Shown here: in pieces, positions 9,227 through 52,050 of the stretch
How the letters are laid out: the number at the start of each line of letters is the position of its first letter
Numbering within the stretch: position 1 is the stretch's first letter
Assembly: GCA_964548275.1 (NCBI GenBank)
Contig: CAZJQI010000004.1
Span: 13,149 to 77,148 of the forward strand
DNA length: 64,000 nucleotides
Reading direction: 5' to 3'
DNA from: an uncultured Gemmatimonadales bacterium
GTDB taxonomy: Bacteria; Gemmatimonadota; Glassbacteria; GWA2-58-10
Position numbers and translations under genes: made by a program
The notes under the pieces: generated by a model
The model's input: only the letters and a program-made list of their open reading frames with translations
Told to the model about the DNA's origin: nothing
Database searches by the model: none

Positions 9227-10471
9227 ATGTTGAAACTTTTCAAGCACATGCTTCTCTGCATTTCTGAACACGGAATGGCCTGGCCACTGGCTGTTTTTCT
9301 GGTTTGTTTGAGTTCAACTGCCGGTTCCCTTCATGCGGATTCCATGTTTGCCGCGCCTCATCTGGGTATTCCGGTAGCTCCGGGGGACGCCAGAAGCCGC
9401 GCGCTGGGAGGCATTAGTGCGGCGATTCCCGGGGAGGATTTCACAATCAGCAATCCGGCCCGCACGGTGAATTTCTGGCGCGCAGGTTTCAATGGTGTTA
9501 TCGCACAGGATTACCGTTCATTGAAAGGCCCCGGCGGAAATCTTAATCTCCGCTCCACAGAGTTCCTCTCATTCCGGGGGATATTCCCAAGCTACAAGAA
9601 ATTTGTCCTCTCCTGGGGAGTCTGCCAGCGGAGGGATCTCACCTGGGAGTATTCCGACCGCCTTAATCTCGACTTTTTTCCAGGTGAAATCAGCCGCACA
9701 CTTTCTTCTGACGGCGGCCTTTATGTCAGCAGGTTCACTATCGCCCGCACTGTGAGTAATAACCTGGCTTTTGGCCTGGGGCTCGACTGGATGTTCGGCA
9801 GAGCCAAAAGAGAGAGGCTGTTTGATTTCTCGAATGCAAACCTGGTCAACAACCAGGAGAGCTATGAAACTCGGTATTCATTTGTCAGGCCCACGTTCGG
9901 GGTGTTGACCTCTATCAGGGGAACCAACGTGGGTTTCTCGATTACGATTCCGAAAACAGCCGATGTGGAATTGAAAAGTAAATTTCTCAGCGGTTATTCG
10001 TATGAGGAAACATACAGATTCAAGTATCCGCTTTCCTGGAGGCTGGGCTTTTCAAAGCGGATAACGCAGCACAGCCTGATCGGGGCCGACATAGAGTACG
10101 AGGGCTGGAAAGGCAGCGACCTGGATCTCGAGCAGCCGGCAACGGCTGCCAATCAGTGGAGATACTGTATCGGCTACGAGTTTTTACCGGCAGCCGTGGA
10201 AAACCCTCCGCTGTACCGTAAATTCCCCCTCCGGCTGGGCTTTTCCCAGGCGACTTACCCTTACAAAATCTCTGGCTCAAGTATAACCGAAACCTCGTTC
10301 AGTTTCGGCACCGGCAGGTATTTTGCCAACAGGAACGGGCTGGTAGACATAGCATTCGAGTATCTAAAGCGCAGAACTGAGCTGGAGAATTATCCGGAGG
10401 AGAGAGTTTTCAGGGTGGTGTTTTCTCTTTCGGCATTTGAGAGATGGGTTACTCCTCCACGCAGAAGGTGA
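9227..10471 (+). CDS. Outer-membrane beta-barrel protein, FadL/OmpP1-like or PorP/SprF-like
   Basis: Signal peptide. The N-terminal motif is GDARSRALGGISAAIPGEDFTISNPA. The protein is 414 aa with alternating beta-strand character. Confidence 0.4.
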   Translation: MLKLFKHMLLCISEHGMAWPLAVFLVCLSSTAGSLHADSMFAAPHLGIPVAPGDARSRALGGISAAIPGEDFTISNPARTVNFWRAGFNGVIAQDYRSLKGPGGNLNLRSTEFLSFRGIFPSYKKFVLSWGVCQRRDLTWEYSDRLNLDFFPGEISRTLSSDGGLYVSRFTIARTVSNNLAFGLGLDWMFGRAKRERLFDFSNANLVNNQESYETRYSFVRPTFGVLTSIRGTNVGFSITIPKTADVELKSKFLSGYSYEETYRFKYPLSWRLGFSKRITQHSLIGADIEYEGWKGSDLDLEQPATAANQWRYCIGYEFLPAAVENPPLYRKFPLRLGFSQATYPYKISGSSITETSFSFGTGRYFANRNGLVDIAFEYLKRRTELENYPEERVFRVVFSLSAFERWVTPPRRR

Positions 10472-10645
10472 GAAACGATTTAGAATAATATTGACAATAA
10501 CTTTATTAATTATTAGCTTTTTAAATCTTTTTCAGATGCCGGAAATTTGTAGAGTTTTATCCCTGGGGCATTTGCGCAATTTTCCCGTAAATGATCGGTT
10601 AATGAAATACAGAAAAAAGGCTTTTGGGGCCTGGGTGGTAATCAG

Positions 10646-11074
10646 ATGCAAACTTATGCGACAAAAAGTAAGCATATCGAAAGAAAATGGTACGTGGTTG
10701 ATGCCACGGATAGGATTCTGGGACGTCTGGCCTCGGAGATCGCCCGGCTGCTGATGGGTAAGCACAAGCCATATGTTAGCCGGCACCTCGATGTGGGCGA
10801 TTTCGTAATCGTGATTAACGCGGAAAAAGTTCGCCTGACAGGCAAGAAACTTGAGCAAAAGTATTATTTCCGTCACACAGGTTATCTCGGAGGTGTCAAG
10901 ACAGTTCGCCTGGACAAGATGCTTTCCGAAAAACCGGAAAAAGTGATCCGGCATGCAGTCCGGGGCATGCTGTCGCACAATAGTCTGGGTCGCCACCAGT
11001 TGAAAAAGATGAAAGTATATGCCGGACCTGATCACCCCCACGAAGCGCAGAAACCGGAACCATTGGAGATTTAA
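10646..11074 (+). CDS. rplM: 50S ribosomal protein L13
   Basis: Diagnostic L13 N-terminus [17 protein letters not shown]. Confidence 0.95.
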
Positions 11075-11139
11075 AGACAGAACGGGTCCGTCCTGAAAGC
11101 AAAACCGTTCATTGGGCAGCCCGTTAAGGAGGATACGAG

Positions 11140-11538
11140 TTGGAAAAGGAAAGCAAAACAGTCCATACAGTTGGCCGGCGCAAGACCAGTGTTGCACGGG
11201 TTTATCTTTCACGCGGGAAGGGCGAATGGGAAGTCAACGGCCAGAACCTGAATGAATATTTTTGCCGGGGTAGTCACGTCCAGCTTGTGGAACAGCCATT
11301 CGTTGCGACCGAGACTCTCGGCCACTACAAGGTTAAAGTAAATGTCAAGGGCGGAGGGCATTCCGGCCAGGCCGGTGCTATTAGACTCGCCGTAGCCCGG
11401 GCTCTGGTTGCCATGGATGAATCTCATCGCCTATCCTTGCGCAGAATGGGCCTGTTGACACGCGATCCGCGCATGGTTGAACGCAAAAAGTACGGGCAGC
11501 CCAAGGCGCGAAAGCGTTTCCAGTTCTCGAAACGCTAA
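11140..11538 (+). CDS. rpsI: 30S ribosomal protein S9
   Basis: S9 signature. It ends in the C-terminal KRFQFSKR. Confidence 0.95.
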
Positions 11539-11632
11539 TCTGCACGCGTTTATTTTGCAGCCGATTGGTTCGAATTCAGATATCGCATTTATCATTAGTT
11601 TGTGGGAATTAATATTTCCTGAAGGAGCTTAG

Positions 11633-12838
11633 ATGGCATTTCCAACCATCCAGAATTTACTGGAATCCGGTGTGCATTTCGGTCACCAGACTCGGCGCTG
11701 GAACCCGAAAATGAAGAAGTTTATTTTCGCCGAGCGCAATGGTATCCATATCATAGACCTGAAAAAAACTTTGAACCACTTGAAAAAAGCCTCAGACAAG
11801 GTACGGGAGATTGCGGAAAAGGGCGGGAATATCCTTTTTGTCGGCACCAAAAAACAATTGCGTGATATTATCAGGGATGAGGCTGTCCGTTGCGGGATGT
11901 ATTACGTGAACGAACGCTGGCTGGGGGGAATGATCACCAACTTCCAGACTATCAAGAAGAACATCCGCAGGCTCAGAGAACTGGAAAGGATGAGGGACGA
12001 AGGTGAATTCGAGTTGAGGGCAAAAAAAGAAGCCCTCTCGCTCCAAAGAGAACTGCAGAAACTCCGGAAGACATTGGACGGGATCAAACTGCTCGGCGAT
12101 GTCCCCGATGCGATGTTTGTTGTCGATACGCAAAAAGAGAAAATTGCCGTGGCCGAGGCGAACAAGCTGAAGATACCGCTTATTGCCCTGATTGATACCA
12201 ACGCCGATCCCGAGCAAATCACCTACCCTGTGGCAGGAAACGATGATGCCATCCGCTCGGTTAAGATGATTACTCAGGCTATCGCTGATGCAGTGCTTGA
12301 GGGCAAAGCGAAGATAACTGAAAGAATTGAAATGGAGAAAGAGGCTGAGGGTGAGGAAGTCAAAGTGGGAATCCGGGAGCAGAGAGAACGGGAACAGCCG
12401 AGACGTCCCCGTCCCAGACGCCGTCAGCGCAGAAAAAGGCCTGCTGAGGAAATAGCCGCAAAGAGTGCTGTAAAGGAAGCCAGGGAAGAAGGCGAAAAAA
12501 GGAAGGCCGAGCCTGCCGGTGAGAAGAAAAAAGAAGCCGCTGGTAAGGTAAAAAAGGCCTTCGGAGTTCCCAGGAAGGCTGGCGAAGAAACCAAGAAGTC
12601 AGAGGAAAAAGCCAGGAAGCCTGCCAGGGAAACGGAAAAAGCCGTTGCTGAAAAGAAAGCCGCCGGCAAGGAAACTGAACCTGCCGGTGCGGAAAAACAG
12701 GAAGCTGTCAAAGGAAAAAAACATGCGGGCGCAACCAGAAAGAAATACACTGGCAAAGCTGAAAAGGCCTCAGCGTCGGCAAAGAAGAAAGAAACAGCGG
12801 AGAATAAGCAATCAGATCGACCAGCCCGCGGAAACTAA
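11633..12838 (+). CDS. rpsB: 30S ribosomal protein S2 with a roughly 150 aa Lys/Glu/Ala-rich C-terminal extension
   Basis: The S2 core (VHFGHQTRRWNPKM...) runs to about residue 250. A low-complexity tail rich in K, E and A follows. Confidence 0.9.
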   Translation: MAFPTIQNLLESGVHFGHQTRRWNPKMKKFIFAERNGIHIIDLKKTLNHLKKASDKVREIAEKGGNILFVGTKKQLRDIIRDEAVRCGMYYVNERWLGGMITNFQTIKKNIRRLRELERMRDEGEFELRAKKEALSLQRELQKLRKTLDGIKLLGDVPDAMFVVDTQKEKIAVAEANKLKIPLIALIDTNADPEQITYPVAGNDDAIRSVKMITQAIADAVLEGKAKITERIEMEKEAEGEEVKVGIREQREREQPRRPRPRRRQRRKRPAEEIAAKSAVKEAREEGEKRKAEPAGEKKKEAAGKVKKAFGVPRKAGEETKKSEEKARKPARETEKAVAEKKAAGKETEPAGAEKQEAVKGKKHAGATRKKYTGKAEKASASAKKKETAENKQSDRPARGN

Positions 12839-40801: not shown

Positions 40802-41404
40802 TTAAGCCTTATCTTCGGGGCTCTTTTCCTTACCAGAGTTCTTTTCCTCAGTCGGGGGTTTTTCCTTGCTATCAGATTTTTTCTCTATATCAGCCTTTTG
40901 TTCGGTTTCGCCTTTTTTCTCGGCAGGAGTCTCTTGCTCAGCAGGAGCTTTTTCCTCGACTGGAGCTTCCGTCTGGGCTGCCGCCTTTTGCTCAGCAGGA
41001 GCCTGCTCTTTACTGACCACTTTCTCTTCAGCCGGTGTCTTTTCCTCAGTCGGGGTTTTTCCCTCGACTGGAGCTTCCGTCTGGGCTGCCGCCTTTTGCT
41101 CAGCAGGAGCCGGTTCCTTGCTAGCGGCTTTCTCTTCAACTGGAACCTGTTCCTCAACCGGAGCCTTCACCTCTTCTGCAACCCTGGTTTCGACCCGGAC
41201 TTTTTTCTTGCCTTTGGCGGCCGGGGCGGCAAGACGTTCCTCGTTCCTCACCAGAGAAACCAGTTTGCGTTGCACCCTTTTCAAACGCTTGTGAAACATG
41301 CGCAGCCTCGCCCTGTCAACTTCTTTTTCCTGAGCAAGCTGGGCTGTTTCTTCCTTGTATTTGGTAATTGTCTTTTCCAAAGTCTGCCTGGTTACCAAGT
41401 CCAC
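40802..41404 (-). CDS. Hypothetical protein with N-terminal coiled coil and Lys/Glu/Ala/Pro-rich repetitive tail
   Basis: The N-terminus is basic and helical. It carries a 36 aa tandem repeat (SKE[PQ]APAEQKAAAQTEAPVE...), encoded by a 108 bp DNA repeat. Confidence 0.5.
   Translation of the reverse strand: MDLVTRQTLEKTITKYKEETAQLAQEKEVDRARLRMFHKRLKRVQRKLVSLVRNEERLAAPAAKGKKKVRVETRVAEEVKAPVEEQVPVEEKAASKEPAPAEQKAAAQTEAPVEGKTPTEEKTPAEEKVVSKEQAPAEQKAAAQTEAPVEEKAPAEQETPAEKKGETEQKADIEKKSDSKEKPPTEEKNSGKEKSPEDKA
40950..41110. repeat. 108 bp-period tandem repeat inside the 40802-41404 coding sequence
   Basis: cctcgactggagcttccgtctgggctgccgccttttgctcagcaggagc occurs at about 40954 and again at about 41062. 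Confidence 0.6.
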
Positions 41405-41527
41405 CTCCTTAAGGGTCTATCCGTACACAGCGAATCATGTGTCTGGAATGTATATACAGATAGGCGGTTTTATCAAGCGAAATTTTCAACAGGCAGGAAT
41501 TTTGTTGCAAAAAAAACTGTTTTTCCC

Positions 41528-41556
41528 TTGACTTTCGCTTTTTTTTCGCTTATAGT
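41528..41556 (+). promoter_or_regulatory. Candidate sigma70 promoter (TTGACT-17-TATAGT) upstream of lexA
   Basis: ttgact at 41528-41533 and tatagt at 41551-41556. The spacer and surroundings repeat TTTTCGC four times. Confidence 0.45.
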
Positions 41557-41730
41557 AAGGCAGATTTTCGCTAAATTTTCGCCTTAAGGCTGGCAGATAG
41601 AGAGCGGCTTTATCGAGATAATAACTTTTGTGGGTGATCTGATCCCCGAAATTTAATACAACCTGCTTGATACATTGTCCGAACCTTTTGCTGAAGGAGG
41701 GATCATGTACCTGTTGCTGGAGGAGGGATC

Positions 41731-42339
41731 ATGTACCTGACCCGGCGTCAGAAAGAGATTCTCGACTTCATCGAAAATCACATCGAGAATGTCGGCTACG
41801 CGCCCAGCATCGAGGATATCTGCTCACAGTTCGGCCTGAGTTCAACCGCCACAGTGCACAAGCATCTGTCAAATCTGGAACAGAAAGGGCTTATCCGCCG
41901 CTTCCCCAACCGCAGCCGCGCGATTGAACTCTGCCGCATAGAGAGAGTTCCGTATGGCGCGGTGGTCTCTGCGCCTCTGCTGGGCCGGATAGCCGCGGGC
42001 AGGCCGATCGAGGTGGTTGAGGTGCCCGAGAGTATCGAGTTGCCGGAGAGCATGGTGGGCAAGCGGCCCACTTTCGTGCTCAAGGTTGAGGGAGACTCGA
42101 TGATTGATGAGCAGATCCGCGACGGGGACTACGTGATTATGGAGCAGAGCGCCACAGCCGAGGACGGCCAGATCGTGGTGGCCCTGATCGGTGGGGAAGA
42201 GGCCACGCTCAAGCGCTTTTACCGTGAGAAAGACGGTGTGCGTCTTCAGCCGGCCAATGTCAATATGTCACCGGTTATCCTGAAAGACGGCGAGTTCCAG
42301 ATCCAGGGCGTGGTTATCGGTGTGCTGCGCAAGTACTAG
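41731..42339 (+). CDS. lexA: LexA repressor (S24 peptidase)
   Basis: N-terminal winged HTH. The S24 domain has catalytic Ser in GDSMID. An Ala-Gly cleavage region is present (RIAAGRPI). Confidence 0.95.
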   Translation: MYLTRRQKEILDFIENHIENVGYAPSIEDICSQFGLSSTATVHKHLSNLEQKGLIRRFPNRSRAIELCRIERVPYGAVVSAPLLGRIAAGRPIEVVEVPESIELPESMVGKRPTFVLKVEGDSMIDEQIRDGDYVIMEQSATAEDGQIVVALIGGEEATLKRFYREKDGVRLQPANVNMSPVILKDGEFQIQGVVIGVLRKY

Positions 42340-42679
42340 ATGTTTGAATGAAGATACCCTGAGATTTTCAACGTTATTTTTTTGCTAACTCATCATGGTA
42401 ATTGTCACGGCACTTCAAGCGGCCGTAGGCCGCACCCGGGGCCGCTTGTCTGAGCCGGGCAAGAGGAGCGTGTAGTTGACAAGCAATTTCCATCGGTGTA
42501 TCCGCGAAGCTGCTGAAGGCAGGCGAGTTGCGGCCTCGAAGAGATTTTTGCTACTTTTGATCGCTTGCAAAAGTAGAAGAAGCTTTTGATGAATATATCT
42601 TGGATTTTCATGCTTCGTTGTGTCAGAAAGCAGACATGAGGGTTTACGACTCTTACACTCAGAGTTCGGAGGAAAAAGA

Positions 42680-42848
42680 GATGAAAAGCAGACTCGTCGC
42701 CTACGGCAGGATTCAGAAAGGCCGCCCGGGCAGATGCCAACTGGTGCTGCTCGATGACCGTCTCTGCCCGGAGGGCAGCGGGCTAGCCGCTTTGCTCCAG
42801 AGATGGCGCAAGGCTTTCCGTACCCGGGTGAGCCTGGTCAGGCGCTGA
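42680..42848 (+). CDS. Small basic ORF (55 aa) between lexA and dinB with a strong RBS
   Basis: ggagg lies 8 nt upstream of the ATG. Sequence: MKSRLVAYGRIQKGRPGRCQLVLLDDRLCPEGSG... It stops 15 nt before dinB. No family was recognised. Confidence 0.3.
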
Positions 42849-42863
42849 AAGGGAGTACTGTAG

Positions 42864-44072
42864 ATGGACAGGCATATCGTGCATATCGACATGGATGCCT
42901 TTTTCGTTTCTGTGGAGCGCTCGCGCGACCCCTCGCTGATCGGCCGCCCGGTGGTGGTCGGGGCTGTGGAGGGCAGCCGGGGCGTGGTGGCCTCGGCCTC
43001 CTACGAGGCCCGGCGCTACGGGATACGCTCGGCAATGCCCGTAGCCCAGGCGCGCAAACTCTGCATGCACGCCGTGTTCCTGCCCGGGAACATGGGGCTC
43101 TATGTCAAGGTCTCCCGCGCCATCCGCGAGATCCTCCAGTCGTGGACTCCGCTGGTGCAGATGAGTTCGATAGACGAGGCCTACCTTGATCTCACCGGGT
43201 TCGACCGCTGCTACGGACCCATTCTCGGCACGGTGGATCGCATCCTGCGCCAGGTCCGCGACACTCTCGGCCTTGAGCTTTCAGCCGGGGTTGCCGCCAA
43301 CAAGCTGGTGGCCAAAATCGCCTCGAAAACTGCCAAGCCCTCCGGGCTGTTGTGGGTACTTCCGGGACGCGAGAAGCAGTTTATGGCGCCCCTGCCTCTG
43401 GAGGAGGTGCCAGGGGTGGGCGAGGCTTTGAGCAAACGCCTCTGTGGCCTGGACCTGACTACAGTAGGCGAGTTGAGGAGGCTCGAACTGGGGCTTCTGG
43501 TCCGGGTTTTCGGTGTTGCAGGCGAGTGGCTCTACGACATGGCCCGGGGCCGGGGAAGCCTGAGAGTAGAGTCCGAAAGGCCCCCGGTCAAGTCCGTGGG
43601 CAATTCGGTCACTTTCAGCGAGGATACTGTGAACCGCCGCTTTCTGGAAGGAGTGCTCTATCACCTGGCCGAAAAGGTGGGCGCCAGGACACGCCGCAAG
43701 GGCTTTGTCGGACGCACGGTGAGTTTGCGCCTGAGATATTCGGATTTCAAGACAGTCACCCGCTCGATCTCCGCCGGGGTCGGTACGAACTGTGATACGG
43801 AAATATTCGAGCAGGCGCGCCGGCTGATGATCCCGTTGTTAGAGCGCAGGGTCAGGGTGCGCCTGCTGGGAGTCACTCTTTCCAACCTCCGGCCCGCAGA
43901 CAGCCAGCTCGACCTTTTTACCTCAGGTCTCCAGATGCGAAGCCTGCGCTTTTACCGCACAGTGGACAGCCTGAGGGAAAAATACGGTTTCGACTCTGTG
44001 CGCAAGGGGCGCGCTCTCTGGCTCGATAATTTTCGCCGCCCGCCCGAGTACGCCCGGCGCAAGGCAGGGTGA
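42864..44072 (+). CDS. dinB: Y-family DNA polymerase IV (DinB-like, catalytic residues intact)
   Basis: DMDAFFVSVE and SIDEAYLDLTG carry the catalytic Asp and Glu. IMS family. It lies downstream of lexA. Confidence 0.9.
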   Translation: MDRHIVHIDMDAFFVSVERSRDPSLIGRPVVVGAVEGSRGVVASASYEARRYGIRSAMPVAQARKLCMHAVFLPGNMGLYVKVSRAIREILQSWTPLVQMSSIDEAYLDLTGFDRCYGPILGTVDRILRQVRDTLGLELSAGVAANKLVAKIASKTAKPSGLLWVLPGREKQFMAPLPLEEVPGVGEALSKRLCGLDLTTVGELRRLELGLLVRVFGVAGEWLYDMARGRGSLRVESERPPVKSVGNSVTFSEDTVNRRFLEGVLYHLAEKVGARTRRKGFVGRTVSLRLRYSDFKTVTRSISAGVGTNCDTEIFEQARRLMIPLLERRVRVRLLGVTLSNLRPADSQLDLFTSGLQMRSLRFYRTVDSLREKYGFDSVRKGRALWLDNFRRPPEYARRKAG

Positions 44073-44246
44073 GGGGGATAAACAAGATAAATTTTGACAA
44101 AACAAATTTTTTGGGGTAGTCTCAATATAGATGTTTAATTTGTAATGACAATGCTGATATAAAATTATAGAGAATACTAAATCGGCGGCATAAGTCGATA
44201 GATAGTTTTATTTAGCAACTTAAATTTTGTATCGGAGAATAGCAGA

Positions 44247-45359
44247 ATGACTATCCCTAAAGAGATAACATGGCCAATAGACCCTCATACCAAAGCAAAA
44301 CATGAAATTCTAAGACGTTATCTTGAAGCTTGGTTTCCCATACTTAATAAATATCACAGTCGTCTTGTTTATATTGATGGATTTTGTGGCCCAGGGCGCT
44401 ATGAGGGGGGAGAACTTGGTTCACCTATCATTGCTTTAAGAACTGCTATAGACCATACGAGAAAAATGCAAGGTAAACTTATTTTCAGGTTTACTGACAG
44501 AGATGAACAAAGGGTGGAACATCTTCGAAACGAATTAAATAAATTAGAAAATCAAATGCCGAGTAACTTCGATGTCCGAGTAAATTGTTGTGAGTTTGCT
44601 GATAAACTCGAAGAAATTTTATTTTATGTAGAAAAGCAGAATATCGAACTACCGCCGACTTTTGCGTTTATAGATCCTTTTGGTTTTTCAGGAATACCTT
44701 TCGATTTAATAAAGCGATTATTGAGCCATCGAAGTTGTGAAGTGCTCATAACTCTTATGGTTGATGCTATTAATAGGTTTGTAGAGCACCCCAGAGACAG
44801 GCTAACAAGGCATATCGTTGAGGCCTTTGGGACAGAAGAAAGTATTTGTATTGCTGAAAAAGTTGATAAAGAGGGTAAGGACAGAATTACTGAGCTAAGA
44901 ATGCTGTATCAAAAACAATTGAACCAAGTGGCTGCTTTCGTTCGCTATTTTGAGATGCGAGACTGTGACAACAAAACTATATATTATTTGTTTTTTGCTA
45001 CAAACCATAGAAGAGGACATTTAAAGATGAAAGAAGCTATGTGGAAGGTAGATCCTGGTGGTGATTTCGTATATTCTGATGCAACAGACCCAAATCAGAG
45101 AACGCTTTTTAAAGACGAGTGTATCGTACCCGATCTCTCGGCTATTCTTGAGGGAAAATTTAAAGGCCAAAAAAATGTCAAAGGGGAGATTATAAGGCTG
45201 TTTGTAGAGGATGACACCGCATTTCTAAATAAACATAAGAAGACAGTGCTTGAAAAAATGGAGTCATTACATAAAATTGAAGTCTGTCCAGAAAAATTAC
45301 TTGGTGGAAAGAGGGCACCAAACACTTACCCGGATAAAGCGCTTATAACATTCTTTTAA
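44247..45359 (+). CDS. TcmP-like partner protein (SAM-methyltransferase-like fold?), low GC
   Basis: 370 aa. YIDGFCGPG resembles SAM-methyltransferase motif I (FxGxG). Its start is reminiscent of the 'three-Cys-motif partner protein TcmP' family as I recall it, which I cannot verify. GC is about 38% against about 58% in the flanks. It is tightly linked to the radical SAM gene, with a 10 nt gap. Confidence 0.55.
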   Translation: MTIPKEITWPIDPHTKAKHEILRRYLEAWFPILNKYHSRLVYIDGFCGPGRYEGGELGSPIIALRTAIDHTRKMQGKLIFRFTDRDEQRVEHLRNELNKLENQMPSNFDVRVNCCEFADKLEEILFYVEKQNIELPPTFAFIDPFGFSGIPFDLIKRLLSHRSCEVLITLMVDAINRFVEHPRDRLTRHIVEAFGTEESICIAEKVDKEGKDRITELRMLYQKQLNQVAAFVRYFEMRDCDNKTIYYLFFATNHRRGHLKMKEAMWKVDPGGDFVYSDATDPNQRTLFKDECIVPDLSAILEGKFKGQKNVKGEIIRLFVEDDTAFLNKHKKTVLEKMESLHKIEVCPEKLLGGKRAPNTYPDKALITFF

Positions 45360-45369
45360 TTGGATAATC

Positions 45370-46416
45370 ATGGGCAACCAAGTGACATTTAAATGCTCGA
45401 AAGCTGTTAAATCAGAAACTGTCCGTGGTATCCCCACCGTACACCGCGGATCGTTCATAAAGCAGTTTGGCGGACCGGGAGACGATACTAGCATAGTGTG
45501 TTTCAAGTTCTGGGAGCTTGTGGTTGCCGCGGGCTGTCCTTTCTCGTGTTCTTATTGTTTCCTTCAAGCCACGCCTTCTTATGTATTCGGGCACTATCCG
45601 ATAAAAGGAGCGATATTTGAAAATTGGCAGGATATGGTTGCAGAGGTTGAGAAATGGCTGAAGCACCCGACCCCTCGCATGCTTGTAATTGGTGAGTTGC
45701 AAGACGGCCTGGCTTTTGATTCTGCTTACAGGAAAGTTGCGGGTAAGGCTCTTACTGAAATGCTCATACCACTATTTGCACGGCAAAAGAAACACAGACT
45801 CCTTTTTTTAACAAAATCAACAGTTATTAAGAACGCTTTAAAGCTTACCCCGACAGAACAAGTGATTTTTTCCTGGTCTGTTAATGCAGAGGAGGTTTCT
45901 CGCCGCTGGGAGAAAGGTGCGCCTTCGCCAAAAAGGCGTATTGAAGCCGCGCACAGAATGAAAGAGGCAGGTTGGCCGGTCAGATTCCGTCTCGATCCGA
46001 TGGTGCCATTTGATGGATGGCAGGAGGGTTATGGAGAAATTATAGAGCAACTCAATGAGCTGAATCCTGAAATGATTACAATAGGGGCGTTGCGCGCATC
46101 AAATACCTTGAAAGCACACGCAAAACGGAATGGCCGGGACGCTTCTATATTTAATATGCTTTCGGTAAAAGACCCGAGTGGTTTTAAATGGCGTCTTCCT
46201 CATGAAATACAGGTCGAGCTATTTCGCTTTGCCTACCAGAATATCGACAAGAGTAAAATTATCCCTGCTCTTTGCAAGGAAGATTTATCGATTTGGAAAG
46301 AGGTTGATATGGAATTCAAAGGCTGCCACTGCTTGATCGGGGAAAGTGATGAAATTGTGAAGGAACGTAAAAAGAGTTTCACGCGTCGGATTAGTGGTGG
46401 CAGGCCCACGGAGTAA
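45370..46416 (+). CDS. Radical SAM protein of the spore-photoproduct-lyase-like (SplB/COG1533 'DNA repair photolyase') family
   Basis: AAGCPFSCSYCF is a CxxxCxxC iron-sulfur motif in the GCxFxCxYC context typical of SplB-like enzymes. 348 aa. Reduced GC, about 47%. Confidence 0.75.
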   Translation: MGNQVTFKCSKAVKSETVRGIPTVHRGSFIKQFGGPGDDTSIVCFKFWELVVAAGCPFSCSYCFLQATPSYVFGHYPIKGAIFENWQDMVAEVEKWLKHPTPRMLVIGELQDGLAFDSAYRKVAGKALTEMLIPLFARQKKHRLLFLTKSTVIKNALKLTPTEQVIFSWSVNAEEVSRRWEKGAPSPKRRIEAAHRMKEAGWPVRFRLDPMVPFDGWQEGYGEIIEQLNELNPEMITIGALRASNTLKAHAKRNGRDASIFNMLSVKDPSGFKWRLPHEIQVELFRFAYQNIDKSKIIPALCKEDLSIWKEVDMEFKGCHCLIGESDEIVKERKKSFTRRISGGRPTE

Positions 46417-46538
46417 TGCCTATGATTTCTTCCAACTAATTCTATTATCTTAACTTATTCTCCAAGAACATCTTTGGTTGTTAAACGCCGGTAGCCTTAT
46501 GCTCCCGACGCAAAGGATATTTTTGTCTAAAAAAGGTC

Positions 46539-46850
46539 ATGGGTTTGGATTTCGTTCATCTCAGATGCCACAACAATTTTTCGCTCCTTGAGGGCGCCGC
46601 CACTGCTCAGCAGCTTCTCGAGGCTGCCAGGGCACGCGGTTTCCGCGCCTTGGCGCTCACAGACACCAACGGGCTCTATGCAGCGGTCACTTTCGCCAAA
46701 AAAGCGCAAGAATTGGGGATCAAGCCGATCTTTGGCGCCGACCAGGGGGGGGGCGTTCTCCGGAGTATCGAAAGCGGCCTTGTCAGCCGGGAGGTGAACG
46801 GCCGGAAAGTTACCTGTGGATGGTTTCGTATTTGCGCTTTTCGTGGATAA
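46539..46850 (+). pseudogene. dnaE2: 5' remnant of error-prone DNA polymerase DnaE2/ImuC (PHP domain), truncated
   Basis: FVHLRCHNNFSLLEGAATAQQLLEAARARGFRALALTDTNGLYAAVTFAKKAQELGIKPIFGAD matches the DnaE2 N-terminal PHP domain. Similarity stops at a G9 homopolymer near 46745. The frame then runs into the convergent yihY gene, so only about 70 of about 1000 codons remain. Confidence 0.6.
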
Positions 46851-47652
46851 AGGCGATCTCTGCTGCTACCACATAGACCAGCGAGGAGATGTAAAACCAG
46901 AAAATCATCACCACGAAAGCGCCCAGCGTCCCGTAAATCCGGTTAAAATCAGGGTACATGTGAAGGAAAAGTATATAGAGTTGCTTGGTGATTTCAATAA
47001 CCACTGCCGCGATTGAGGTAGCGATCAGGCAGGTTTGGTTCCTCATGCTTTTCGAAGGGAAGAATTTGTAGCTGATAAACAGCAGAGCCACGGTTAGCAG
47101 AAAGGTGAGAATGATTCCGATAAGATGGCTTTCGAGTACCTGCAGAAGAGAGAATACTTTATTGTTGAAAAGAATGCTTTCTCTGAAAAGTCTGGGCAGG
47201 AAAATGATAGTCAGGTTGGCCACGATCATCATGATTCCCAGCAGAAGAAGCAACATGAAATCGAACACCTTGCCATGAATTATCCCGCGCGTATGTTTGG
47301 CCTCGAAAACGATATCCAGCACTGTTCTCAGGCTGGCGAACAACCTTGTCGCCGTGAAAGCGAATATCCCCAGACCGATAATTCCGATCCAGGTACGGTC
47401 CTGGATCAATCTCTGAGTGTTGGTAATAATACTTTCGCTCGAAACCGGAATCAGGCTCTGGATATAAACAACGGTCTTATCCCAGAGTTCGGCTGAACTG
47501 CTGAACGCGAAACCCGCGATAGAAAAAAGTATCAGGATCAACGGAATGGTGGTGATCACCACGTTGAAGGCTATCCCTGAGGCGAGAAACAGGGTGTCAT
47601 CCTTGATTAACTTGAACCAGAGGTTTTTGATATAGTACCAGAGCAAGTACAT
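46810..47652 (-). CDS. yihY: YihY/BrkB-family inner-membrane protein
   Basis: Virul_fac_BrkB family signature GIAFNVVITTIPLILILFS. Polytopic. Confidence 0.8.
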   Translation of the reverse strand: MYLLWYYIKNLWFKLIKDDTLFLASGIAFNVVITTIPLILILFSIAGFAFSSSAELWDKTVVYIQSLIPVSSESIITNTQRLIQDRTWIGIIGLGIFAFTATRLFASLRTVLDIVFEAKHTRGIIHGKVFDFMLLLLLGIMMIVANLTIIFLPRLFRESILFNNKVFSLLQVLESHLIGIILTFLLTVALLFISYKFFPSKSMRNQTCLIATSIAAVVIEITKQLYILFLHMYPDFNRIYGTLGAFVVMIFWFYISSLVYVVAAEIAFIHEKRKYETIHR

Positions 47653-50599: not shown

Positions 50600-50675
50600 A
50601 CCTGGTTTCTGCAGATAGGAGTAGAGGTAGCTGAATACTGAAGGTTTTTTACTATTTGAAAAAGGGAATTTTCAA

Positions 50676-50716
50676 GGCCTGTCCGATAGCTTATGGGGGA
50701 TGGACAGGCCTTTTTA
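50676..50716 (+). terminator. Rho-independent terminator after the dockerin-repeat gene
   Basis: Stem ggcctgtcc/ggacaggcc plus a T5 run. Confidence 0.65.
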
Positions 50717-51077
50717 TTGTAAAAAGGGAGCGAATTTTTCAAGATTGATTTGTGATTACAATCACCCGGTATTCTGGATAAATACCATTCCGGAGAATGT
50801 TTGCTTAATGAATTAAACAATGTCTATTTTCCCGACTTTGAAATCAGAGATTTGGCAGGTAAAGTTTGCGTATTCGTAACTTCTTTTGATTTCAATAAAT
50901 TATAGTTTTGTGTAATCAGAAATCAAATAGTCGATGTGCCATTTAGCATGGTAAGAAATGTTCTCATTGATAAATAATAAAGTTGGAACAGATTATCATA
51001 GTTGAAGATAAAAATTGACAAACGTGAGTTTAGCATTAGATTTAAAGCGTTCAATTTAGACTAAAAACAGTTTGTGC

Positions 51078-51154
51078 GGGGTCGTAGTTCAGATGGTTAG
51101 AACGCCGGCCTGTCAAGCCGGAGGTCGCGAGTTCGAGTCTCGTCGGCCCCGCCA
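51078..51154 (+). tRNA. tRNA-Asp (anticodon GUC)
   Basis: Cloverleaf with anticodon loop CTGTCAA. It is highly similar to E. coli tRNA-Asp. CCA is encoded. Confidence 0.9.
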
Positions 51155-52050
51155 TTAATATCAAGGGTTTGCTGGAAACGGCAGGCCCTTTTTTATTTTA
51201 AATAATCTTTATCCCCAACACTATCCCCAACAGATTTTATGGATTCTGAGGTAAAAACAGGGGAAAAATCTTTTCCACTTTTGGACTTTTTTACTCACTA
51301 TACCAGAATGCAAGACGAGAAAACTGTAGCAAAATAATCCTGCTACGATGAAAGTTTAAAAGTGGTACCATCGGCACTGGTTTTAGTTATTTACATGAAC
51401 GATCCCCAGAAGTCCTCTCCGTAAAGAAGGACATGTCCAGGCAACTTTCTTATATGGCTCTTCATGTGGATATGGTGACAAGAGGTTCCTAAAACGAGGA
51501 TGATGTCCTGTTGGTCGAACGCAGCAATCCTAAGGTCAGGCTGCTGCGCTTTGCCTTGAGGCGAGCCAAGTAGAACCGGCAAGCGAAGGATGAACCGCTT
51601 TCAACCTCTTTTTAAGGTTTCTTGATTTATCGGTAAAATGCATTAAGTTTAAAACTGATGCATCTATTCTTCCAAGTACGTAGCCGCACGAGACTGGTAT
51701 TGCACTTAATGAAACCGACATCCGCTGCAACTGATTGATCTGGTTATAAACGCCACAGGCTGAAAGTTTTAAAACAGAGGTGCGGAAAAAAGATTGGCTA
51801 CCTCTGGAAATTATGTAAGGAAAAAATCAACGAATGATTAAAAACAGCGTTTCAAGGAGACCTTTGGAAATTCAGGGAAAAAGAAGTTTATGAATGGATA
51901 AAGTCGGACGGGGCCGAAGATTTAGGTAACATGGATTCATAGAACAATTGAAGGGCCAGTAAGATGGCACAAAAAAGTCAGATCTGACACAGACAAAGAC
52001 TCAGGGAGCGTTTCCTTCGAGCAGATGATTCTTCCCGTTCGGAAATTGCA

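Follow-up and report, generated by a model that had tools for sequence, protein, structure and literature searches.

The window analyzed here, i.e., the whole stretch of 64,000 nucleotides, contains a low-GC gene pair in the order lexA-dinB-[pair]-truncated dnaE2, with the pair downstream of lexA-dinB and on the same strand (Table 1). An earlier note had described this arrangement, and HMM matches confirmed both the lexA-dinB genes upstream and the truncated dnaE2 downstream. The two ORFs of the pair were recovered as the note had called them, with a 10-bp gap, and the motifs quoted for their products, YIDGFCGPG and GCPFSCSYCF, lie at residues 42–50 of gene 1 and 55–64 of gene 2. Among the neighbors, LexA scored 217.8 bits for TIGR00498 (cut-off 111) and also matched PF01726 and PF00717, while DinB reached 316.8 bits for NF002677 (cut-off 256) and keeps the catalytic motifs DMDAFF and SIDEAYLD. 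The small ORF between them is found in all related contigs (55–89 aa) and had no match in a Pfam search. Downstream of the pair, only the first 68 codons of the 103-aa dnaE2 ORF are authentic, and residues 7–69 correspond to the PHP domain found in DnaE-type polymerases. Known SOS mutagenesis cassettes comprise lexA-imuA-imuB-dnaE2 and dinB-dnaE2 operons (Erill lab, PMC4951493, PMC8565304). The host operon, lexA-orf-dinB-dnaE2, is of this kind and is kept whole around the pair in relatives, but in the window it has a whole dinB without an intact DnaE2. The literature found on these cassettes describes no methyltransferase-like and radical SAM pair inside them.

Table 1 Features of the lexA-dinB-dnaE2 locus, with positions given in the 64-kb window
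Feature	Position	Strand	Basis
lexA promoter-like region with TTCGC-N6-TTCGC direct repeats	41523..41582	+	Promoter scan, pattern search
lexA, 202 aa, first in same-strand gene string	41731..42339	+	TIGR00498, PF01726, PF00717
Small conserved ORF, ~70 aa, between lexA and dinB	42636..42848	+	Present in every related contig
dinB, DNA polymerase IV, 402 aa	42864..44072	+	NF002677, IMS, IMS_C, HHH domains
5' non-coding leader of the pair	44098..44246	+	Alignment with L078, L076, L080
tcmP (gene 1), 370 aa	44247..45359	+	TIGR04474
Hypervariable patch: TcmP winged helix and ~first 100 rSAM residues	45069..45668	+	Window vs L080
SPL-family radical SAM (rSAM) gene (gene 2), 348 aa	45370..46416	+	PF20903, TIGR04070, Foldseek
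3' non-coding end of inserted segment	46417..46544	+	Homology to empty site; right junction exactly at dnaE2 start
dnaE2 remnant, 103-aa ORF	46539..46850	+	PHP domain match, deletion vs L071

Next, we evaluated the base composition of the island. The low GC content noted earlier was confirmed (gene 1, 0.372; gene 2, 0.461; whole window, 0.514), and the contrast persisted when GC was computed in windows along the 64 kb: no other 1.1-kb stretch is as low in GC as gene 1, which lies 3.7 SD under the mean, and the island has a GC content of 0.405 over 2447 bp, compared to a minimum of 0.427 for any other 2447-bp stretch. Gene 2 by itself lies only at the 8th percentile of the window. Flanks of 58–60% GC had also been described, which holds for the SOS genes (lexA, 0.583; dinB, 0.625) but not for the rest of the window (~0.51), which is GC-poorer than these genes.

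A contig 95% identical to the window (L071) carries lexA-orf-dinB-dnaE2 with an intact dnaE2 (1056 aa), i.e., an empty site. There, 108 bp of intergenic DNA stand in place of window positions 44098–46544, and homology to the empty site stops at 44097 and restarts at 46545. Relative to L071, the window has also lost 2911 bp of dnaE2 (L071 positions 9539–12449) at an 8-bp microhomology, GGCGCCGA, with the junction at 46734–46741. dnaE2 is intact in L071 and in two more distant relatives, L076 and L078; in the source strain it has since been lost, with the pair left whole. The 108-bp spacer resembles neither end of the island, so that a simple deletion could not be demonstrated, and the empty site may equally reflect loss or allelic replacement as recent gain. 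Horizontal acquisition had been proposed earlier, and a strain-level presence/absence polymorphism exists, but low GC does not prove a recent arrival: in L076 and L078 (DinB 74% amino acid identity), the pair occupies this very position, beside an intact dnaE2 and with equally low GC, making low GC a lasting property of the pair. No integrase, transposase, or terminal repeats were found in or beside the island.

Candidate control elements were found ahead of lexA and of the pair itself. A promoter scan identified TTGACT-17-TATAGT at 41528–41556, ahead of lexA, and exact copies of TTCGC-N6-TTCGC at 41534 and 41567 are the sole exact matches in 64 kb. These repeats are a candidate operator for the whole operon, including the pair. 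The leader of the pair is conserved with distant relatives through a block, GTAATGAnAATnCnGATATAAnATT, and a ribosome-binding site, with an invariant TTGACA just upstream at 44092–44097. A LexA operator directly upstream of 44247 had been suggested as a check, and none was found: around 44073–44246, both the TTCGC-N6-TTCGC repeat and the CCAC-N8-GTGG palindrome seen in related operons are absent. The terminator scan of the dinB-tcmP gap returned nothing convincing, only a weak hairpin (6-bp stem, 44181–44199), and an Rfam scan of 41300–47100 matched the leader to neither a riboswitch nor any other known RNA.

Gene 1 had been likened to the TcmP family, and this assignment was verified at 223.5 bits for TIGR04474 (cut-off 53), with a match spanning profile positions 1–262 of 263. 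The CxxxCxxC protein that should adjoin a TcmP is gene 2, which begins 10 bp downstream (C56-x3-C60-x2-C63). Because a sequence search against PDB chains returned nothing meaningful (best E 0.023), fold comparison was required: residues 1–280 are predicted to form an RlmJ-like class I SAM-methyltransferase fold, with motifs K18, D44-G-F-x-G-P-G, and D143-P-F-G, and residues 281–370 form a C-terminal winged helix. The best structural matches are the rRNA/tRNA methyltransferases RlmJ and Trm1. RlmJ is the 23S rRNA m6A2030 methyltransferase (PDB 6QE5, 2OO3). Unlike RlmJ, TcmP has no Pfam or NCBIfam RlmJ match, carries the added winged helix, occurs in DNA-related contexts, and has a DP(F/Y/T)G motif IV where RlmJ-type enzymes have DPPY.

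Gene 2 had been described as a SplB-like radical SAM enzyme. Membership in the spore photoproduct lyase (SPL) family was supported by PF20903 (76.4 bits, cut-off 27), a PDB profile match to SPL (E 2.5e-15), and the fold, with PF04055 just under its cut-off (28.0 vs 29.5), but the protein is not a SplB ortholog: it scored 83 bits against a cut-off of 400 for TIGR04070, and 42 bits against 437 for TIGR03886. The structural comparison with SPL proposed in the earlier note was done on an AF2 model (pLDDT 87.5), for which the best Foldseek match was 4rh0 (E 4e-13, TM 0.60). The top six matches were all SPL (E 4e-13 to 2e-12, TM 0.59–0.63), the next family reached 1.7e-5, and Elp3 was the second-best fold group. 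The enzyme shares with SplB (TIGR04070; PDB 4FHC, 4RH0), its best sequence and fold match and itself DNA-acting, the radical SAM core and the CxxxCxxC motif, whose three cysteines are invariant across the family. It differs in its overall sequence (19% identity), its N- and C-terminal regions, its obligate methyltransferase-like partner, its hosts beyond spore formers, and four further invariant cysteines (C44, C302, C319, and C321), which may coordinate a second metal or Fe-S cluster. In HMMER alignments to 4K9R and 4FHC (G. thermodenitrificans numbering), the hydrogen-donor Cys140 of SPL aligns with L114, a leucine in 61 of 62 family members, and Tyr98 aligns with F64, a phenylalanine in 55 of 62; Tyr96, retained as the invariant Y62, is the sole residue of the three to be kept.

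The “SplB-like” genes of COG1533 are classic SOS members (PMC4951493, PMC3765255). Gene 2 shares with them the broad superfamily branch and the LexA linkage, but matches the models of these families weakly (NF033668, PA0069: 25.8 bits vs 360; NF038135, Rv2578c: 33.7 vs 430). The work on these genes (PMC4951493, PMC8565304, PMC3765255) mentions no TcmP partner. A phage origin was not supported, with just three weak-to-moderate radical SAM matches among 2.9 million viral contigs.

The conservation of the two genes as neighbors, on which their reading as a system depended, was evaluated across 60 species-level loci, mostly from Acidobacteriota, Planctomycetota, Proteobacteria, and archaea. A TcmP-like ORF directly adjoined the radical SAM gene in the same orientation in 45 of these loci, in either gene order, in hosts that include bacteria and three archaeal lineages. 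The two also occur as natural single-protein fusions (P0439, P0441, P0421, and P0413), one of which (P0439) is present on two independent contigs, while in other members of the radical SAM family the fusion partner is ParB_N/HTH_ParB or the target-recognition domain of HsdS, and inteins also occur. Sequence divergence is much more rapid in TcmP than in its partner (47–50% vs 74–77% amino acid identity). Between the window and a close relative (L080), the loci are ~100% identical on either side of the hypervariable patch and 53–83% identical within it, with 47 non-synonymous and 28 synonymous codon differences in TcmP residues 281–370 compared to one difference in residues 1–280. The TcmP winged helix and the radical SAM N-terminus have thus been swapped together between near-identical strains. 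The pair is one conserved, mobile, two-protein enzyme module, and its link to DNA is strong but indirect, coming from a fold like that of SPL, from fusions to DNA-binding partners, and from the genes nearby.

At least four separate lineages of the pair lie with SOS genes. An acidobacterial clade is arranged as dinB>tcmP>rSAM>dnaE2 (~17–18 loci), a cross-phylum clade as lexA>rSAM>tcmP with overlapping genes, a third lineage consists of the window, L076, and L078, and the fourth (L090) reads rSAM>tcmP>imuA-imuB-dnaE2. The count of SOS-linked loci, 26 of 60, overstates their independence since the acidobacterial loci are largely one vertical lineage; nevertheless, SOS coupling arose several times independently. 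In the cross-phylum clade, the lexA gene encodes a dedicated, self-cleaving LexA paralog with a conserved putative operator, a CCACWCA..TGWGTGG-type palindrome found before lexA in 9 of 13 clade loci. The putative clade-2 LexA target sequence is CCACTCATATGAGTGG. The Y-family genes of ~450–540 aa beside the acidobacterial pairs were considered as inactive ImuB and rejected, as they score as DNA polymerase IV. An insertion into the SOS locus by chance was not borne out, because the pair occupies the same site in L076 and L078, and in other phyla, too, unrelated lineages of the pair are coupled to lexA, dinB, imuAB, or dnaE2.

Other relatives lie in defense loci, within Hma (L007-10 and L089), Type III restriction-modification (R-M; L012, L084, and L085), or a Type I-like locus of a defense island (L086-88). 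The link to defense suggested earlier holds for related pairs in that they lie inside such systems, but the pair in the window is not nested in a defense system, its host operon being SOS. Embedding in defense systems is also how the PADLOC candidates PDC-M30 and PDC-M41 were found (Payne et al. 2024, bioRxiv 10.1101/2024.01.29.577857). TcmP matches PDC-M30A (E 5.4e-53), and PDC-M30 is modeled as two genes, A>>B (FAM_02577>>FAM_00989; 10.1101/2024.01.29.577857). At E ≤ 0.1, none of the PADLOC models matched gene 2, so that the pair falls short of the full PDC-M30 model. As in PDC-M30/PDC-M41 and TIGR04474 pairs, a full-length TcmP stands beside a CxxxCxxC protein and relatives occur in Hma and R-M loci; unlike in PDC-M30/PDC-M41, the partner is an SPL-family radical SAM enzyme and hence not their “B” protein. 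Ophion, a radical SAM defense system, was considered as a relative and rejected as viperin-like. Literature searches returned no paper describing a TcmP-radical SAM pair, incidental table mentions only for TcmP, TIGR04474, PDC-M30, and GMT-wHTH, and no mention of the pair's SOS/translesion-operon context or dedicated LexA.

Given that the pair recurs in SOS polymerase operons and in restriction-type defense systems, it is a real candidate for a widespread DNA-acting module rather than a stray insertion. In our preferred reading, to which we assign a probability of roughly 0.4, the two enzymes would form a mobile module that modifies DNA bases, probably in a sequence-directed manner, and whose expression is tied to SOS. 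Specifically, TcmP would bind DNA via its variable winged helix, and its RlmJ-like domain would flip the target base and probably methylate an exocyclic nitrogen. The radical SAM enzyme would make a 5'-deoxyadenosyl radical using its CxxxCxxC [4Fe-4S]/SAM site and a putative second Cys4 metal site, and this radical would abstract hydrogen either from the newly added methyl group or from the nucleotide itself as presented by TcmP. The outcome would be a covalently altered base, so that the module would be a “writer” that places a modification or lesion in DNA, and not a housekeeping repair enzyme. It would act as a conflict/defense cassette whose specificity can be exchanged between strains, and would be tightly controlled, either nested in restriction-type systems or, here, in a LexA-controlled dinB-dnaE2 operon. 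In this SOS setting, the module would be made only upon DNA damage, together with translesion polymerases able to replicate past the altered bases.

We infer the direction of the reaction, i.e., writer versus eraser, from context only, and several points go against the preferred reading: a constitutive self-marking modification fits poorly with LexA repression, SPL, the closest characterized homolog, is a repair enzyme, COG1533 “SplB-like” genes are established SOS members, gene 2 lacks a PADLOC match, and no LexA-type operator adjoins the pair in the window. As the main rival, the pair may erase lesions in an SOS-induced repair needing neither light nor oxygen, where TcmP would recognize a base that is damaged or alkylated and flip it, and its radical SAM partner would directly reverse the damage, as SPL does for the spore photoproduct, complementing the translesion polymerases. 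SPL is the nearest homolog and the nearest fold, the pair recurs in operons with lexA, dinB, imuAB, and dnaE2 and has its own self-cleaving LexA and operator in one clade, LexA regulates related COG1533 radical SAM genes across many phyla (PMC4951493, PMC8565304, PMC3765255), and the family is rare in viral contigs. However, the replacement of Cys140 and Tyr98 in most members and the scores far under the SplB, PA0069, and Rv2578c cut-offs argue against this reading, an obligate partner with intact SAM-methyltransferase motifs serves no obvious need of a repair lyase, and repair genes do not typically show HsdS fusions, R-M/Hma embedding, a specificity patch that is hypervariable, or a distribution that is patchy and varies between strains. 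Overall, we consider an eraser somewhat unlikely. An RNA-modifying pair acting on rRNA or tRNA instead of DNA would fit the structural matches of TcmP to RlmJ and Trm1 and the Elp3 group among the radical SAM folds, but is very improbable: all informative contexts and fusions are DNA-related (LexA, translesion polymerases, R-M, HsdS, and ParB), and a patchy distribution that varies between strains is unsuited to a function in the translation apparatus.

An autonomous anti-phage/anti-plasmid cassette would have no functional SOS tie and would nest in any operon that is inducible or expressed well, with R-M, Hma, and SOS operons as mere landing pads. This is consistent with embedding in defense systems, the discovery principle of PDC-M30 and PDC-M41 (10.1101/2024.01.29.577857), with the match of TcmP to PDC-M30A, with mobility, low GC, and the empty site, and with a conserved 5' leader and TTGACA box of the pair's own. 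We nonetheless regard it as unlikely, since four independent SOS captures are hard to put down to chance with one to a few such loci per genome, and one of them includes a dedicated LexA paralog with a conserved operator. The pair may also be a helper of programmed mutagenesis. TcmP would select the sites at which lesions that miscode or block are written, and the co-transcribed, error-prone DinB and DnaE2/ImuC would copy these lesions, leading to an SOS-induced, site-biased hypermutation. The pair lies between or directly upstream of both polymerase genes in three independent lineages and under LexA in a fourth, and TcmP has a swappable putative DNA-recognition domain; yet numerous pairs lack a neighboring polymerase and are located in R-M or Hma loci, the pair in the window is intact despite the deletion in dnaE2, and the reading is purely contextual, so that we give it low odds.

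We hold out similarly low odds for a programmable DNA-lesion writer that would apply radical chemistry at sites picked by a swappable domain, acting as a non-nucleolytic “restriction” effector in R-M/Hma loci and as the lesion-making half of SOS-induced, site-biased hypermutation in lexA-dinB-dnaE2 and imuAB-dnaE2 operons. If true, it would be a prokaryotic counterpart of a deaminase combined with an error-prone polymerase. Two leads follow from the comparisons across loci, namely a candidate new LexA-paralog operator of the CCAC-N8-GTGG type, and a natural specificity-swap experiment between the window and L080. The pair also provides a handle on an old question, the role of LexA-regulated “SplB-like” radical SAM proteins in non-sporulating bacteria. 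If it modifies DNA, it would represent a new type of DNA chemistry, based on radical SAM and exchangeable in its target specificity, and the first enzymatic accessory within the widespread dinB/imuB-dnaE2 mutagenesis cassettes, and the SOS response, translesion synthesis, and restriction-type defense would be joined by one module.

The two genes are co-oriented, 10 bp apart, and contain the motifs YIDGFCGPG (gene 1) and GCPFSCSYCF (gene 2) quoted earlier. Gene 1 was likened in the earlier note to TcmP, so named as the partner of a three-Cys-motif protein, and is a full-length match to TIGR04474 (223.5 bits, cut-off 53); it also matches the PADLOC defence candidate PDC-M30A (5e-53), and a PDB sequence search detected no relative. 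The placement of gene 2 in the spore photoproduct lyase (SPL)/“DNA repair photolyase” group stood at the level of the family (PF20903, 76 bits), but the protein is not SplB itself (83 bits vs an equivalog cut-off of 400), and its scores with two SOS-associated families, PA0069 and Rv2578c, were only 26–34 bits. Among proteins of solved structure, SPL is the closest to it both in sequence profile (2.5e-15) and in fold (E 4e-13, TM 0.60; next family 1.7e-5). From the SPL radical relay, gene 2 retains Tyr96 alone (as Y62): Tyr98 is replaced by Phe, and in 61/62 members of the radical SAM (rSAM) family Leu stands in place of the H-donor Cys140. Beyond the three cluster cysteines, bacterial and archaeal members alike have C44, C302, C319, and C321 without exception, and we read these as a putative second metal or Fe–S site.

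Next, we evaluated the pair across genomes. Scanning a single genome for each species, we found 60 loci, spread over many bacterial phyla and three lineages of archaea. The rSAM family as a whole has 278 representatives at 50% identity (E ≤ 1e-30). The claimed pairing held up: an iterated HMM placed a TcmP-like ORF immediately beside the rSAM gene and in the same orientation in 45 of the 60 loci, in either gene order, and in two further loci an IS element or small ORFs separated the two. Single-polypeptide TcmP–rSAM fusions also occur (P0439, on two independent contigs, P0441, P0421, and P0413), i.e., the pair is a conserved two-enzyme module that is sometimes fused. In five other members the rSAM is fused to ParB_N/HTH_ParB, and in one to an HsdS target-recognition domain, partners that all bind DNA. 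Since a TcmP gene still follows the HsdS-fused rSAM, TcmP is more than a targeting subunit. Three family members carry inteins (P0388, P0436, and P0463, with intein and LAGLIDADG insertions), as does the intein-containing Rv2578c family. Viral contigs almost lack the family (3 matches). At some loci the genes are bordered by tyrosine recombinases or an IS3 element; variants of the module include solo rSAM genes in Myxococcota with tyrosine recombinases immediately upstream (L044 and L046), as well as the HNH and dCTP deaminase loci tabulated below.

The recognition part of the module is hypervariable. Between the window and the related locus L080, the region from dinB to dnaE2 was about 100% identical except for one patch (53–83%), in which 90 TcmP codons displayed 47 nonsynonymous and 28 synonymous codon differences; TcmP codons 1–280 displayed one difference. 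By analogy with hsdS, the patch looks like a specificity cassette swapped by recombination, which implies that the exchanged TcmP and rSAM parts act together.

Coordinates of the pair and of associated features in the window and in related loci (L numbers)
Feature	Sequence	Position	Strand	Remarks
Gene 1 (TcmP)	window	44247-45359	+	370 aa
Gene 2 (rSAM)	window	45370-46416	+	348 aa
Hypervariable patch	window	45069-45668		TcmP winged helix and roughly rSAM residues 1-100
Island replacing empty-site sequence	window	44098-46544		2447 bp; ends at exact dnaE2 start
dnaE2 deletion between two GGCGCCGA copies	window	46734-46750
dnaE2 deletion between two GGCGCCGA copies	L071	9531-9538 and 12451-12458
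Second low-GC stretch	window	about 50600-51700		GC 0.34-0.40; downstream of cohesin/dockerin gene
TTCGC-N6-TTCGC tandem repeats	window	41523-41582		11-bp period; overlap and follow predicted lexA promoter
18-bp direct duplication GGAGGGATCATGTACCTG	window	41696-41713 and 41722-41739		over lexA RBS and start codon
Small ORF between lexA and dinB	window; L076	42636-42848; 232-501		55-89 aa, conserved in all relatives
Lys/Glu/Pro/Ala-rich protein	window	40802-41404	-	internal repeats (…APAEQKAAAQTEAPVE…), divergent from lexA
16-bp palindrome	L030; L042; L043; L053; L054	7230; 5598; 250; 7281; 7288
16-bp palindrome	L057; L037; L049 and L056	190; 298; 7344
HNH protein	L026	7178-7942		in TcmP's place; weak Type IV restriction match
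dCTP deaminase	L056	9554-10168		downstream of solo rSAM
Unannotated ~300-aa protein	L084; L086	6015-6911; 6066-7004		between N6-methyltransferase and rSAM fusion gene

Windowed GC upheld the compositional contrast claimed for the pair, while the “58–60% flanks” apply to the SOS genes only, which are GC-richer than the remaining window. Specifically, GC was 0.372 for gene 1 and 0.461 for gene 2, compared to 0.583 for lexA, 0.625 for dinB, and a window-wide value of 0.514. No 1.1-kb stretch of the 64 kb has a lower GC than gene 1 (3.7 SD under the mean), and the 2447-bp island is lower than every other window stretch of equal length; gene 2 on its own is unremarkable (8th percentile). The second low-GC stretch is the sole window region approaching the GC of the TcmP gene.

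Judged by IlvB (78–80% similarity to named MAGs), the window comes from an uncultured bacterium close to Candidatus Glassbacteria. Two contigs with 95% sequence identity to the window (L071 and L072) display an empty site, lexA-orf-dinB-dnaE2 (1056 aa)-brkB, where the island stands in for 108 unrelated bp; neither recombinase nor repeats were found at the insertion in this comparison. Separately, a deletion at the microhomology GGCGCCGA removed 2911 bp of dnaE2; the 103-aa ORF downstream of the pair has the PHP start of a DnaE-type polymerase as its residues 1–68. The G-run after the deletion junction has 9 G in the window vs 7 G in L071. In the distant relatives L076 and L078 (DinB 74%, DnaE2 71–75% amino acid identity), synteny is the same and the pair occupies the same site beside an intact dnaE2, with the same contrast in GC (TcmP 0.37–0.39, rSAM 0.47–0.50, polymerases 0.62–0.67). 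It follows that the pair has resided in this clade for a long time and that low GC is a lasting trait of it; instead of being ancestral, the empty site may have arisen by loss or by allelic replacement. Divergence of the rSAM (74–77% identity) is about equal to that of DinB, and that of TcmP (47–50% identity) much greater.

LexA targets are known to include COG1533 “SplB-like” genes, and dinB-dnaE2 operons are SOS units (PMC4951493, PMC8565304, PMC3765255). Upstream of the pair, the window encodes LexA (TIGR00498, 218 bits) and an apparently active DNA polymerase IV (NF002677, 317 bits vs a cut-off of 256). A LexA-type operator, raised in the earlier note, was not found beside the pair in this window; the sole candidate is the set of TTCGC-N6-TTCGC direct repeats at the lexA promoter (two exact copies, no others in 64 kb), which may serve LexA as its operator in this lineage, with a direct repeat instead of a palindromic box. 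This leaves damage induction of the pair here plausible but unproven. The 5′ leader of the pair is conserved, with an invariant TTGACA and no Rfam match. Around lexA, the GGAGGGATCATGTACCTG duplication yields two RBS–ATG units 26 bp apart and mutually out of frame, the divergent Lys/Glu/Pro/Ala-rich protein differs in length by strain (192–206 aa in L001, L002, L071, and L073), and the small lexA–dinB ORF, without a Pfam match, might be a stand-alone ImuB-C-like accessory such as those reported in PMC3765255.

SOS linkage extends beyond the window's own clade. About 17–18 acidobacterial loci, taken as one event in our count of SOS captures, display a tight dinB>tcmP>rSAM>dnaE2 operon; an ImuB identity for their Y-family genes was rejected, as these score as Pol IV. 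In a second rSAM clade (Deltaproteobacteria, Gammaproteobacteria, Thermoanaerobaculia, Vicinamibacterales, and others), the first gene is a distinct LexA paralogue overlapping or ≤56 bp from rSAM>tcmP, with an N-terminal motif PPPSYRxLCxEFGWSSTGTARDHLRALxRKGY; with its AG cleavage site, GDSM, and TLKR motifs all present, it is predicted to be self-cleaving. The palindrome CCAC(T/A)CA..TG(A/T)GTGG precedes this lexA in 9 of 13 clade loci (background of CCAC-N8-GTGG, 0.033 per kb) and is a candidate new LexA-binding motif. At L090, imuA-imuB-dnaE2 lies directly downstream of rSAM>tcmP. Since SOS-linked pairs fall in separate lineages of a neighbour-joining rSAM tree, the SOS link arose at least four times.

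The suggested association with defence islands was borne out by relatives in Hma, Type III, and HsdS-fused loci. The closest non-syntenic relatives of the window are in Hma, between SNF2-DUF1156 and DUF499 in a Bacillota MAG (L007-10; L089 is similar). In Type III systems, the pair sits between mod and res genes (L012), likewise in fused form (L084 and L085), and the HsdS-fused form adjoins an Eco57I-like N6-methyltransferase, the surrounding island also encoding AbiEii, HEPN/MNT, and Fic. The ~300-aa proteins of the Type III-embedded L084 and the HsdS-fused L086 displayed no detectable similarity by BLASTP. TcmP-like PDC-M30 and PDC-M41 are putative embedded defence candidates (Payne et al. 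2024, 10.1101/2024.01.29.577857). In the searchable literature we found no description of an SPL-family enzyme paired with TcmP, of such a pair nested within mutagenesis cassettes, of a LexA and operator dedicated to it, or of the fusions and the hypervariable patch.

We tentatively favour, at a probability of about 0.4, a conflict-type module that writes DNA modifications under LexA or R-M control. TcmP would bind DNA, flip a base, and probably N-methylate it; the rSAM would then perform 5′-deoxyadenosyl-radical chemistry on the flipped nucleotide, yielding an altered base whose tolerance co-expressed DinB and DnaE2 would serve. We favour such a writer because the methyltransferase motifs are intact, HsdS and ParB fusions exist, relatives are embedded in defence loci, specificity appears fast-evolving and swappable, and the repair-specific residues of SPL are lost. 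The main rival is a lesion-reversal enzyme independent of light and oxygen, for which SPL homology and SOS wiring speak but which we consider unlikely.

A defence cassette merely landing in SOS operons is a rather doubtful account, we give little credence to a lesion writer feeding programmed mutagenesis, and an RNA modifier is highly improbable. All relatives and partners of the module point to DNA. Taken together, we regard the pair as a real but uncharacterised system that has repeatedly become linked with LexA and translesion polymerases or, alternatively, with R-M-type systems.
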